DNA of 14,618 nucleotides from Allocoleopsis sp. (GCF_036703385.1 NZ_DATNPA010000018.1:1-14618), one strand, 5' to 3'. Numbered from the stretch's first letter, positions 1 to 3,380 are shown. Numbers and translations: made by a program. The notes: generated by a model not told the origin, from the sequence alone.

Positions 1-1032
1 ACCCAGATTTGACGGCACCTCCCCCATCATCCTAAACAGCGAACACAGCATCCACAACAGCAGAGGTGTTTGTCCCAACTCCTGCAACCGACTGCCCAAC
101 TGCCTCAACATTTGCTCTCCCTGCTGTGGCAGATAGGCGCGGACGAACTGCTGCATCTGTGCTTCACTCAGGGGTTGCATTTCCAGCTTCTTGGCAATAT
201 CCAAGTCGCCCCCCACCCCCAAGTCCCGCGTCGTGAAAATCATCGGCGTCGTCTTCTGGTAGTCCTGCCGAAATTTCTGCAAATCCCGCCGCGCTTCTTG
301 GGAAGGCAATTCATTGAGTCCATCCAGCAGCAGCAGCAATTGCCCCTGCCGCAACCAGGTTTTGAGCGTTTCGCTATCTACCGTTAAGTTGGGGTCATGC
401 CGTTGTAGGAAGTCTTGGATTAAGTCGAGGATTGAGGTGCGGTAGTAGCGGAGTTCGACGAGGACGGGGATTTTCACCCCCCCTGCCCCCCTTATTAAGG
501 GGGGAGCAAGAGAATCTTGTGTGTTACTGGTGAAGGAGTCAGTTGAACAATCTTCTTCCCCCCTTGCTAAGGGGGGACTGAGGGGGGTGATTCCGGATGC
601 TTCTCCTTTTGCCTCTGAGTGAGTTGAAAAATCTTTTTCCCCCCTTTTTAAGGGGGGATTAAGGGGGGATCTTCCGGATGCTTCGCTGCACCTCTGCGCC
701 TCCTCCAGCACCAACCGTACCAACGCCCTCGATTTCCCCGAACCCGGACGCCCCACTAACAACACATGCTCCGAGGCATACTTGTGCAACCCCTCCAACA
801 CCGTCAATCGCTCAATTTTCTCCTCCCCTTTCCCCCTCTCCTCCCTCTCCCGTTCCACCGTCTGCACCATCAAGCCAAAATCAAACAGTAAGGGCGGTGC
901 CCCCGTGCCCGCCCTAGATGACGCTTCCGCCTCTTCCCGCTTTCGCCCCACTACATCCGTAATGGTGTAAACTTCCCACCATTGCGCGTAAGTCTTGCAA
1001 AGTGATTCTAAATATCGACTCCAATGGGTCAT
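1..1032 (-). CDS. NACHT-family STAND NTPase, N-terminal ~344 aa; the 3' end runs off the left edge of the window
   Basis: The minus-strand translation is open from ATG (1032..1030) to position 1. It reads MTHWSRYLESLCKTYAQWWEVYTITDVVGRK...LEGLHKYASEHVLLVGRPGSGKS (Walker A/P-loop), then VKIPVLVELRYY, then TWLRQGQLLLLLDGLNELPS (Walker B hhhhDGhDE), then PMIFTTRDLG (sensor-1), then LLWMLCSLFRMMGEVPSNLG. The order and spacing of motifs is that of NACHT NTPases, which are abundant in cyanobacteria. It is absent from the ORF track because it has no in-window stop. The plus-strand ORFs 70..387, 678..917 and 782..970 are its antisense shadows. Confidence 0.8.
   Translation of the reverse strand, partial: MTHWSRYLESLCKTYAQWWEVYTITDVVGRKREEAEASSRAGTGAPPLLFDFGLMVQTVEREREERGKGEEKIERLTVLEGLHKYASEHVLLVGRPGSGKSRALVRLVLEEAQRCSEASGRSPLNPPLKRGEKDFSTHSEAKGEASGITPLSPPLARGEEDCSTDSFTSNTQDSLAPPLIRGAGGVKIPVLVELRYYRTSILDLIQDFLQRHDPNLTVDSETLKTWLRQGQLLLLLDGLNELPSQEARRDLQKFRQDYQKTTPMIFTTRDLGVGGDLDIAKKLEMQPLSEAQMQQFVRAYLPQQGEQMLRQLGSRLQELGQTPLLLWMLCSLFRMMGEVPSNLG
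477..690. repeat. Three C6-N7-G6 palindromic hairpin units lying in frame inside the NACHT CDS. The second and third units are a diverged ~85-bp tandem duplication that shares the motif TTCCGGATGCTTC.
   Basis: The units are CCCCCCTTATTAAGGGGGG (486-504), CCCCCCTTGCTAAGGGGGG(ACTGA)GGGGGG (558-587) and CCCCCCTTTTTAAGGGGGG(ATTAA)GGGGGG (639-668). On the minus strand they translate without stops as ...SPLNPPLKRGEKDFSTHSEAKGEASGITPLSPPLARGEEDCSTDSFTSNTQDSLAPPLIRGAGG..., which lies between the P-loop helix and the IPVLVELR strand. Confidence 0.7.
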
Positions 1033-1109: not shown

Positions 1110-1370
1110 GTGCCAATGTCTCACCCATCCCCCAACGACTATCAACCCCAGCCAAAAACTGAAGAATTCGAGCTAGAAATGCTCAAGCAAGAATACTTCT
1201 TTCTACAAAACACCATTGAAGACTACAACAAACAAATCTGGGTCATTAAAGCCCTCGGAATTACCGGAACTGGCCTGGTGATTAACCAAGTGCTGCAACA
1301 AAAGCAGGGTGAACCGGGTTTAACTGCCTTGATTGGTACGACGATTCCCCTATTTTTTTGGGTACTATAG
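1110..1370 (+). CDS. Hypothetical small membrane protein (GTG start at 1110; alternative ATG at 1116). It is probably frameshifted at the T7 run 1353-1359; with one more T the reading frame continues to a TGA at 1424-1426.
   Basis: An 86-aa ORF with lower GC than its neighbours. It ends inside a hydrophobic helix (TALIGTTIPLFFWVL*). The -1 frame continues as IFLGTIAILMLVMYSQFFSLLCVT*, which would complete a transmembrane helix. No homology is recognised. Confidence 0.35.
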   Translation: MPMSHPSPNDYQPQPKTEEFELEMLKQEYFFLQNTIEDYNKQIWVIKALGITGTGLVINQVLQQKQGEPGLTALIGTTIPLFFWVL

Positions 1371-1441
1371 CAATTCTCATGCTTGTGATGTACAGTCAAT
1401 TTTTCTCTCTTCTTTGTGTGACATGAAATAGCACAATTAGG

Positions 1442-1711
1442 ATGTACATCATGAGTCCGAGAAACGCTATAGAAAGTCAATGGAAGCACTTTCAGCGCGG
1501 CTTTTATCCTCGCGTATATGAGATTGAGGAGATTTTCAAACAGCGGAGTTTTTCTAGCCCCGCTATCTTTAGCGATTGGAGTCGTAACTTGAAGCGAAAT
1601 CCTTCAAATAAACGCAATGGCTATCTCTGGGATGGTCTATTTAATCCCACTGTATATGTTAGTTATGTTCTAGAAATTGTCTTTTTATTACTAATATCTT
1701 TTATAAAGTAA
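1442..1711 (+). CDS. Hypothetical small protein with a hydrophobic C-terminal segment
   Basis: An 89-aa ORF in the same frame as the frameshift-corrected upstream ORF, 15 nt after its TGA. It is low-GC, has a C-terminal helix (TVYVSYVLEIVFLLLISFI), and is followed by a terminator-like hairpin. No homology is recognised. Confidence 0.35.
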   Translation: MYIMSPRNAIESQWKHFQRGFYPRVYEIEEIFKQRSFSSPAIFSDWSRNLKRNPSNKRNGYLWDGLFNPTVYVSYVLEIVFLLLISFIK

Positions 1712-1786: not shown

Positions 1787-1846
1787 ATCCCCCTTGCATC
1801 CCCCTTAAAAAGGGGGACTTTGATTCAATTCTCCCCCCTTAATAAG
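1787..1846. repeat. Hairpin-repeat unit CCCCCTTAAAAAGGGGG plus an orphan half-unit CCCCCCTTAATAAG
   Basis: Same C5-6/G5-6 clamp architecture as the units at 477-690, 1895-1997 and 3287-3380. Confidence 0.6.
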
Positions 1847-1894
1847 CTACGGTATACACACATCTCCCGAGCAACCTCAAAATGCAGCATTTTG

Positions 1895-1997
1895 CCCCCC
1901 TAGCCCCCCAATTTTGGGGGGAACTGGAAGTTCAAAGTCCCCCAGAATTGGGGGATTTAGGGGGCATTCCAGGATTCAAGCAAAAAGTCTAATCATC
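1895..1997. repeat. ~100-bp double-hairpin dispersed repeat, copy 1, upstream of ddl
   Basis: CCCCCCAATTTTGGGGGG ... TTCAAAGTCCCCCAGAATTGGGGGATTTAGGGGGCATTC..GCAA.A.GTCTAATCAT. It is about 85% identical to the copy at 3287-3380 and in the same orientation. Confidence 0.7.
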
Positions 1998-3286: not shown

Positions 3287-3380
3287 CCCCCCAATTCTGG
3301 GGGAACCGATATTTCAAAGTCCCCCAATTTTGGGGGATTTAGGGGGCATTCGAGCATTTATGCAAGAGGTCTAATGATTA
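3287..3380. repeat. ~100-bp double-hairpin dispersed repeat, copy 2, downstream of ddl and upstream of ndk
   Basis: CCCCCCAATTCTGGGGG ... TTCAAAGTCCCCCAATTTTGGGGGATTTAGGGGGCATTC..GCAAGAGGTCTAATGAT. It is a direct repeat of 1895-1997. Confidence 0.7.

Follow-up and report, generated by a model that had tools for sequence, protein, structure and literature searches.

An in-frame REPIN-like palindromic repeat in a recurrently colonised loop of a cyanobacterial NACHT NTPase

Introduction

How does a cluster of perfect palindromes come to lie in the middle of an NTPase domain without closing its reading frame, and does the gene gain anything from it? The question is raised by the first gene of the window analysed here, a contig of 14,618 nt taken in full from an Allocoleopsis sp. 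metagenome-assembled genome (MAG). The first-pass annotation, made from the sequence, had described three C6-N7-G6 palindromic units within a NACHT NTPase gene and had considered a tolerated insert in a hypervariable surface loop, a regulatory RNA structure in the mRNA and a repeat on its way to pseudogenisation. Here we compare the insert with its orthologues, with related repeats in other genomes and with the corresponding loop of homologous proteins.

Results

Host gene

The gene runs off the end of the contig (Table 1), and the translated protein is identical to P0001, 'NACHT domain-containing protein, partial [Allocoleopsis sp.]'. Pfam NACHT (PF05729) is matched with 42.9 bits against a cut-off of 26.7, over amino acids 205–303 and from profile position 54 onward only. 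The AlphaFold2 model built from 83 homologues has a pTM of 0.76, and its top Foldseek matches are NLRC4 (E 8e-10), NOD2 and NLRP3; by this predicted structure the host protein has a STAND/NLR-type nucleotide-binding fold. The flanking NACHT motifs had been called intact. Walker A and Walker B are indeed present, but the codon following GKS (727–729) reads Arg (R102), a position at which Thr is found in nearly all relatives.

Among relatives with a complete C-terminus the closest is P0261 (89% identity over 166 aa), which has the architecture NACHT-HEAT-TIR_2, and some other relatives end in an endonuclease-type effector. PADLOC models gave a weak P-loop match alone with the window protein (mad8, E 5.5e-4); in full-length relatives HEAT, TIR and endonuclease effector models were matched. 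Since its relatives carry TIR and endonuclease effectors, the host protein appears to be NLR-like and of the kind used in conflict or defence systems, and its domain architecture suggests a defence role. There is no transposase gene in the window. The N-terminal region contains a second hairpin insert of 24 nt (892–916), which is private to the window copy; further copies of it were sought in 0.9 Mb of fetched loci and none were found.

Table 1. Features of the window that bear on the insert. Positions are counted from the first nucleotide of the contig.
Feature	Position	Strand	Basis or remark
NACHT NTPase gene, 5' part, 344 codons	1–1032	−	start at 1032, off contig end at position 1; translation
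Walker B region LLLLLDGLNE	310–339	−	alignment
Strand beta2 IPVLVEL, adjoins insert	451–471	−	AlphaFold2 188–193, pLDDT >90; conserved in alignments
Unit U1, inverted orientation; C7 tail 477–483 and palindrome CCCCCCTTATTAAGGGGGG 486–504	477–504		encodes LAPPLIRGAGG
Inverted doublet U1+U2, tails outward (REPIN-like), 111 nt, 53-nt spacer	477–587		inverted repeat
In-frame insert with repeat units, 70 codons (aa 116–185)	478–687	−	alignments, AlphaFold2, Pfam
Tandem direct repeat, 81-nt (27-codon) period	536–684		copies 536–603 and 617–684
Unit U2; palindrome CCCCCCTTGCTAAGGGGGG 558–576 and G6 tail 582–587	558–587		encodes TPLSPPLARGE
Unit U3; palindrome CCCCCCTTTTTAAGGGGGG 639–657 and G6 tail 663–668	639–668		encodes SPLNPPLKRGE
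Walker A GRPGSGKS	730–753	−	alignments
Intergenic cluster of related C5-6/G5-6 hairpin repeats, including GCCCCCCTAGCCCCCCAATTTTGGGGGG (tailed-unit form) and CCCCCTTAAAAAGGGGG	1789–1965		
Second intergenic copy of the ~65-nt composite hairpin repeat	3287–3346		between ddl and ndk

Palindromic units and their reading

The three CCCCCC-N7-GGGGGG palindromes reported earlier are exact (Table 1). When one mismatch is allowed, the window contains five such palindromes against an expectation of 0.04, a number that was never reached in 200 dinucleotide shuffles. Two features had been missed before. Each palindrome has an additional C- or G-run 'tail' a few bases outside it, and U1 is inverted with respect to U2, with arms at 468–511 and 551–594 that are 73% complementary over 44 nt. 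U1 and U2 therefore form an inverted doublet with outward tails. U3 is the product of a tandem duplication. A duplication of U2 and U3 of about 85 bp had been proposed; the duplication itself stands, with 85% identity over 68 aligned nucleotides, while its period is 81 nt. Each copy ends with TTCCGGATGCTTC (591–603 and 672–684), as had been pointed out.

On the coding strand the core is read CCC CCC TTA NNA AGG GGG, i.e. PPL-x-RG, which accounts for the PPL-x-RG(G/E) peptide quoted in the first-pass annotation. The order in the protein is ...SPLNPPLKRGE...TPLSPPLARGE...LAPPLIRGAGG, and the translated insert includes the peptides SPLNPPLK and GEASGITPLSPPLAR. We also found the frame to be open through all units: over 468–690 the minus-strand NACHT frame has zero stop codons and is alone in this, the other five having 1–6. 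The insert length is a multiple of three, as had been noted, and so are the length differences between orthologues.

The transcript segment is predicted to fold with −102.5 kcal/mol (z −5.1), with U2 paired to U1, and nine homopolymer runs of 6–7 nt occur within ~190 nt. A scan of the whole window with Rfam gave no family at gathering score, and a terminator and promoter scan of positions 1–2100 found nothing on the coding strand within the insert. Formation of G-quadruplexes or i-motifs is unlikely because a complementary C-run lies 7 nt from every G-run, and duplex hairpins should outcompete them. STRR heptamer arrays, HIP1 and CRISPR were rejected as candidates for the insert, which shows neither a tandem period of 7 nt, nor a GCGATCGC core, nor a regular alternation of repeats and spacers.

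Position of the insert in the NACHT fold

In the AlphaFold2 model the insert is flanked by helix 100–118, which follows Walker A, and by strand 188–193, in agreement with the earlier placement between Walker A and the next beta-strand. It is modelled as coil with pLDDT ~42, both flanks being above 90, and we regard it as a predicted disordered surface loop between well-folded flanks. When amino acids 118–184 are removed in silico, the Pfam NACHT match becomes continuous, covering profile positions 3–166 of 167 with 53.8 bits; the insert peptide alone matched no Pfam family. In P-loop alpha/beta folds the crossover connection is located on the sheet edge, remote from where the nucleotide binds. 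Judged by this general topology, the loop bearing the insert would lie away from the active site.

A dispersed repeat family of cyanobacteria

One genome per species was scanned for CCCCCCTTNNTAAGGGGGG followed by a second G6 run. This tailed-unit pattern occurs in at least 120 stretches, nearly all of them in cyanobacteria of many orders; Nostoc, Microcoleus, Calothrix, Microcystis, Laspinema, Spirulina, Moorena and Coleofasciculaceae are among the matches listed, and the consensus among these matches is CCCCCCTTwTTAAGGGGGGyTAGGGGGGATC. Among the 230 tailed units in the matches listed we counted 46 inverted doublets with tails outward as compared to 2 with tails inward. Outward-tail doublets in these matches have a total length of 61–143 nt, and U1+U2 of the window has the same architecture. 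Our results indicate that the units are members of a dispersed REPIN-/MITE-like palindromic repeat family across cyanobacteria, a membership that had escaped the first-pass annotation.

Related hairpin repeats are present also between genes of the window (Table 1), with the first copy of a ~65-nt composite hairpin repeat at 1904–1965. Hairpins in the opposite order (G-run to C-run) are absent from the window. Only 17 stretches with the repeat were found in 2.9 million viral contigs, so the repeat is not obviously phage-borne. In our data neither a transposase nor a RAYT was tied to the family, and a target-site duplication was not evident; it is thus from the distribution of the repeat alone that we infer its mobility.

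Among the fetched loci, an open frame of 200 codons or more encloses 17 of 101 cores, and the other 84 lie elsewhere. By sequence, the hosts of in-frame cores include a histidine kinase, an NRPS adenylation domain, an RsmE-like protein and an ATPase-kinase, and the cores are read as PPLxRG or (S/P)PLxKGG. It is the third frame of the core that meets the TAA or TAG of the palindrome, and therefore two of three frames are open on either strand. With two open frames, and with C- and G-runs that give Pro and Gly, the element can survive in a loop. Moreover, the lengths of doublets are generally not multiples of three, which makes the in-frame intragenic copies a selected subset.

Orthologues keep the frame and lose the hairpins

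The same insert was found at this site in four other loci: L121 (duplicate L122; P0002), L124 (P0010), L125 and L144, whose contig begins within the insert. L125 was found by a DNA junction search that is independent of ORF calling, and it was the only further locus given by a metagenome scan for the conserved right junction. The insert is thereby present in five independent assemblies, which rules out an assembly artefact. In the four assemblies where the frame is readable through the insert it is open. It is important to note that the sample compared is small, with four loci, of which three came to light through called proteins.

Measured between Walker A and ELRYY, the segment has 297 nt in the window, 261 in L124, 201 in L125 and 207 in L121, and all four lengths are equal modulo 3. 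U3 is present in L124 and absent from L125 and L121. In L125 the alignment with the window has a gap of exactly 81 nt, corresponding to the U3 duplication. The number of units among orthologues is therefore two or three, as had been worth checking, and the duplication is the derived state. Perfect palindrome cores are retained in 3/3 units of the window, 1/3 of L124, 1/2 of L125 and 0/2 of L121. The changes in the stems are all one-sided (GGGGGG to GTGGGG, GGGAAG or GGAGAG; CCCCCC to CCCTCC or CCCCCT), and compensating changes were not found among the orthologue loci compared.

Relatives without the insert are present in the alignments. In the empty-site relative L126, seven codons (TQLEELP) stand where L125 has the doublet. 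The flank common to L126 and L125 extends up to GGCAAGAAC and resumes at the (V)KIP codons (GTAAAGATTCC in L126, TGAAAATCCCC in L125); there is no evident target-site duplication between the empty and the filled site, though the two loci are diverged. Nei-Gojobori omega is 0.18–0.26 for the NACHT flanks and 0.47–0.66 for the insert, the latter being based on 41–60 codons. Taken together, the maintained frame, the decayed stems and the omega values indicate that both frame and fold are under purifying selection, that the peptide is under relaxed constraint and that there is no selection for the hairpin. The same results speak against structural conservation at the RNA or DNA level, and equally against a general pseudogene state and an assembly artefact.

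The same loop is used by other repeat families

Among the best 120 homologues, the segment between Walker A and the following strand has 15–22 aa when uninserted and 25–86 aa in most. This supports the earlier suggestion of a tolerated insert in a hypervariable surface loop, for which the coil in the AlphaFold2 model is another argument; what had not been recognised is that the loop is recurrently used by other repeat families. The longer loops consist of recognisable translations of cyanobacterial repeats, namely PPLxRG; PPSLxGKGVGGLG; LTPSPSPxxGRGE; INFQANSESRLKTTES...SAMSQGIDSLADS; VIARxxxxNEAIS; RGAEEQGSRGAEE; GRRGDGETGRWGD; VETRHGASINGVSING; CRAGILPAINAGGQDAHPT; VGAQGLAPLQ; and KVPLFKGDLGGS.

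So that an insert in the query would not bias the survey of the loop, the uninserted relative P0017 was used as query against 1.84 billion 50%-cluster representatives. Loops could be measured in 128 of the family representatives. Specifically, 75 have at most 23 aa, 18 have 24–30 aa, 24 have 31–50 aa and 11 have more than 50 aa, which means that 53 of 128 (~40%) exceed the baseline of 15–23 aa. The long loops include a helical insert of 121 aa that does not derive from repeats. At least nine repeat families are represented. With signatures defined from inserts already seen, 26 signature peptides were counted in the loop (3,949 residues) as compared to 4 among the 132,614 residues that these proteins have outside it, i.e. 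6.6 versus 0.03 per 1,000 aa or a ~200-fold difference. No other segment is comparably expanded in the first 344 residues of the 83-sequence alignment.

Discussion

Origin of the insert

We consider it likely that the insert is a copy of a non-coding, dispersed cyanobacterial palindromic repeat and is tolerated as selfish DNA. The unit of the family is CCCCCC-TTnnTAA-GGGGGG with a second G-run; as in REPINs and MITEs, it mostly occurs as an inverted doublet, the extra runs of which point outward. In the first step, the U1+U2 doublet of 111 nt would have inserted into the connection between the helix and beta2 of an NLR-like NACHT(-HEAT-TIR) gene; in the second, an 81-nt in-frame tandem duplication would have produced U3. 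Several properties may have made the insertion tolerable. Whichever strand is read, two of the three frames cross the core without a stop codon; the C- and G-runs of the core encode Pro and Gly, which makes the peptide a flexible Pro/Gly/Ser-rich loop; and the crossover loop is presumably remote from the nucleotide-binding site. After insertion, selection would have acted on the reading frame and the flanking NACHT fold only, with the hairpins left to drift and decay. The family is presumably mobilised in the manner of such elements, and the peptide of the insert is probably neutral.

Several points do not fit easily with this explanation or limit it: neither a transposase or RAYT nor a target-site duplication accompanies the family in our data, peptides derived from repeats are concentrated ~200-fold in this loop, the window copy keeps three perfect palindromes and the orthologues do not, and the orthologues compared are few.

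Alternative explanations

The loop may instead have been exapted, with variation in its length and sequence benefiting an immune-type NLR-like protein, for which escape from phage inhibitors and tuning of oligomerisation might be examples; the repeats would then be raw material. The loop survey is consistent with such a role, as 53 of 128 family representatives are above the 15–23 aa baseline, at least nine repeat families are involved and signature peptides number 26 in the loop versus 4 in the other 132,614 residues. So are the TIR and endonuclease effector domains of relatives, which suggest a conflict system, and the fast non-synonymous evolution of the insert. However, omega of the insert is below 1 (from 41–60 codons), its peptides are mere translations of the repeat with no further conserved feature, and many close relatives work with a loop of 15–22 aa. 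Exaptation therefore seems rather unlikely to us. A function at the level of nucleic acid is highly improbable. It could consist of translation attenuation, transcript stability, phase variation by slippage at C6-7/G6-7 runs or a G-quadruplex/i-motif, and a very stable transcript fold (−102.5 kcal/mol, z −5.1) as well as nine runs of 6–7 nt in ~190 nt would suit it. Phase variation is known for defence genes in other bacteria, and the host is a probable defence gene. Yet stems are lost one-sidedly and without compensation in orthologues, no Rfam family and no terminator-like site on the coding strand were found, and the frame is open in every assembly where it can be read; G-runs are flanked by complementary C-runs, which should favour duplex hairpins. 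For the same reasons of uncompensated decay and absent Rfam and terminator matches, we do not maintain the suggestion of a regulatory RNA structure.

The remaining alternative is that the window copy is becoming a pseudogene and that the repeats mark relaxed constraint, as had also been suggested. The window copy does have its oddities: Arg in place of the near-invariant Thr after the Walker A GKS, and the private 24-nt hairpin insert in the N-terminal region. Among relatives there are fragments, L124 is truncated after Walker B, and in L123 a transposase-like ORF abuts the site. Against these stand 344 codons open up to the contig end, flank omega of 0.18–0.19 relative to two orthologues (0.18–0.26 over all comparisons), indels that are all multiples of three, and an insert that was in place before at least four loci diverged and is open in each of them. 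We find decay of the gene very unlikely as an explanation of the insert, and the Arg after GKS together with the hairpin at 892–916 leaves a small chance that the window allele is impaired.

The preferred reading, a tolerated selfish repeat, concerns the origin of this insert; the hot spot as such could stem from exceptional tolerance, from integration that is preferential or nested, or from selection for diversity. The ~200-fold concentration in one loop is more than one would readily expect from simple tolerance. There is a slim chance that the loop of this NACHT-HEAT-effector family is a preferred landing pad into which REP-like elements integrate or nest, and that the ensuing variation in length, sequence or homopolymer tracts is used to diversify or switch an NLR-like immune receptor. 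Recurrent use of a single site has been seen before in recB, in which different REPs occur at nearly one position (PMC3733652), and compared with it the scale in the NACHT loop is unusual.

Significance

Taken singly, the locus is a further example of selfish palindromic DNA surviving within a gene, a phenomenon familiar ever since the Rickettsia palindromic elements (RPEs), and as such it is ordinary; the part worth following up is the loop-specific hot spot in an immune-type family. With at least nine repeat families concentrated ~200-fold in one loop, the system is a clean one for separating tolerance alone from targeting or selection for diversity. The loop is also a naturally validated permissive site in a NACHT nucleotide-binding domain, accepting inserts of up to ~100 residues, and could be useful for tagging and engineering bacterial NLR-like proteins. 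Finally, when cyanobacterial annotations show peculiar 'low-complexity' segments rich in Pro and Gly, domain hits that are split or contigs that break off, such repeats explain a class of these cases.

Comparison with known systems

The small dispersed repeats (SDR) that Elhai et al. are said to have described in 2008 are reportedly very small hairpin repeats of filamentous cyanobacteria, modular or nested, and sit where the orthologous positions are empty. The C6-N7-G6 unit may correspond to one of the SDR families; we claim no identity with a named one.

The RPEs are palindromic, non-autonomous repeats that lie in frame in unrelated genes at positions compatible with the fold (Ogata et al. 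2000, as summarised in PMC10969869). They are ~100–150 nt long, confined to Rickettsia and readable on either strand (PMC10969869). The window insert, too, is palindromic, in frame and at a loop predicted to be compatible with the fold. This is a functional resemblance and not membership: the host is a cyanobacterium, the units are ~30 nt in doublets of 60–140 nt, and most sampled copies of the family are outside long ORFs (84/101 cores). For this reason we do not file the insert as an RPE.

With REPs and REPINs the family shares short imperfect palindromes that are dispersed, mostly extragenic and paired in inverted orientation (PMC3733652; PMC3116915). The three palindromes of the window have 19 nt, within a class defined by hairpin palindromes of ~20–40 nt, and the predicted fold is stable; at least 120 stretches are dispersed among genomes with 84 of 101 cores outside long frames; and inverted doublets prevail (46 versus 2 in the matches listed), as seen also in the arms of U1 and U2. 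Intragenic REP dimers and clusters are known to encode 20–82 aa (PMC3733652). The two described REP superfamilies are defined by a GTAG or CGTC end tag (PMC3733652), whereas the window units and the consensus are untagged, starting with a C-run and ending with GGGGGG(ATC). Unlike REPs, the cyanobacterial family has an asymmetric second G-run 'tail'.

The insert also resembles MITEs such as Nezha and the Correia element in its size of 111 nt, terminal inverted arms and lack of own coding capacity, and MITEs are likewise occasionally fused in frame with host ORFs (PMC10969869). Inverted arms are present, the length is within ~70–300 nt and the peptide has no Pfam match, in accordance with an element that does not code for itself. 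No target-site duplication is visible between the diverged L126 and L125 loci, and no parent insertion sequence was identified. The event as a whole is the in-frame insertion of a REPIN-like repeat, of a kind already known from the RPEs of Rickettsia and from intragenic REPs.

Hairpin insertions and a substitution in the NACHT gene

The NACHT gene of the window contains a second in-frame hairpin insert besides the three-unit one in the loop between the Walker A helix and strand beta2. The sequence AGGGCGGTGCCCCCGTGCCCGCCCT forms a hairpin with a 7-bp stem and contributes eight residues (SSRAGTGA) that are missing in every aligned relative, including the four orthologous loci. No further copies of this hairpin were found among 0.9 Mb of fetched loci. 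The window protein also differs from its family next to the Walker A motif. The residue directly after GKS is Arg (codon AGG, window 727-729), while nearly all of about 260 relatives have Thr, encoded by ACG or ACA in the orthologues; Arg versus Thr at this position is a matter of one C-to-G change.

Coordinates of repeats and small ORFs in the window and in fetched loci (L)
Feature	Sequence	Position	Strand	Remark
Second in-frame hairpin insert	window	892-921	minus	aa 38-45; found in the window only
Two small ORFs (86 and 89 aa)	window	1110-1711	plus	between NACHT start and intergenic repeat cluster
Composite hairpin repeats	window	1789-1965		intergenic; related to intragenic units
Composite hairpin repeats	window	3287-3346		intergenic; related to intragenic units
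Head-to-tail tailed-unit array	L032	6482-6700
Head-to-tail tailed-unit array	L100	3412-3530
Head-to-tail tailed-unit array	L066	7860-7960

Repeats outside the NACHT gene

The intergenic repeats of the window include two copies of an element of about 65 nt, CCCCCCAATTnTGGGGGAAC...TTCAAAGTCCCCCAnnnTTGGGGGATTTAGGGGGCATTC, whose would-be translation is SPPELGDLGG, and the same peptide is present in the NACHT loop of a relative (P0239). In Microcystis and Floridaenema the tailed units (the C6-N7-G6 palindrome plus a second G-run) are strung head to tail without spacers, repeating about every 36-37 nt. Among the matches listed, a few exact ones are non-cyanobacterial (L041, L051, L061, L067, L070 and L071), their sources being MAGs of Planctomycetaceae, Caldithrix, Patescibacteria, Phycisphaeraceae and Aminicenantes. 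Viral contigs hold 17 further matches (L127-L143). These matches may be due to chance, to contamination or to transfer.

Contigs frequently start or stop inside repeats of this family, as in L144 (1-70), the first base of which falls within the NACHT insert, and near the locus ends of L011, L043, L053, L074 and L080. It seems that the family breaks short-read assemblies, and such breaks may be the reason why many NACHT homologues are annotated as 'partial'.

Rearranged and variable relatives

L123 encodes a relative that shares 92% identity with the window protein, and its NACHT gene starts at ...IELRYY (region 2100-2500). Since a transposase-like ORF has its 3' end directly upstream of this start, an insertion sequence or a rearrangement adjoins the same NACHT loop. 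The closest three-unit orthologue, P0010 (L124, 263-949), loses similarity just past the Walker B leucines and continues as unrelated sequence to its end; the L124 gene is a truncated or rearranged copy.

One family representative (P0154) has a 121-residue insert in the same post-Walker A loop. This insert has the look of a helix or coiled coil and not of a product of repeats, and by this appearance the loop also takes large structured insertions. Among the segments of the family, the Glu/Lys/Arg-rich linker ahead of the NACHT core ranks second for variability (16 of 83 sequences); it varies in length (alignment columns 150-180) and in P0003 (aa about 55-80) carries a tandem duplication, RDERGKGEEKVE x2.
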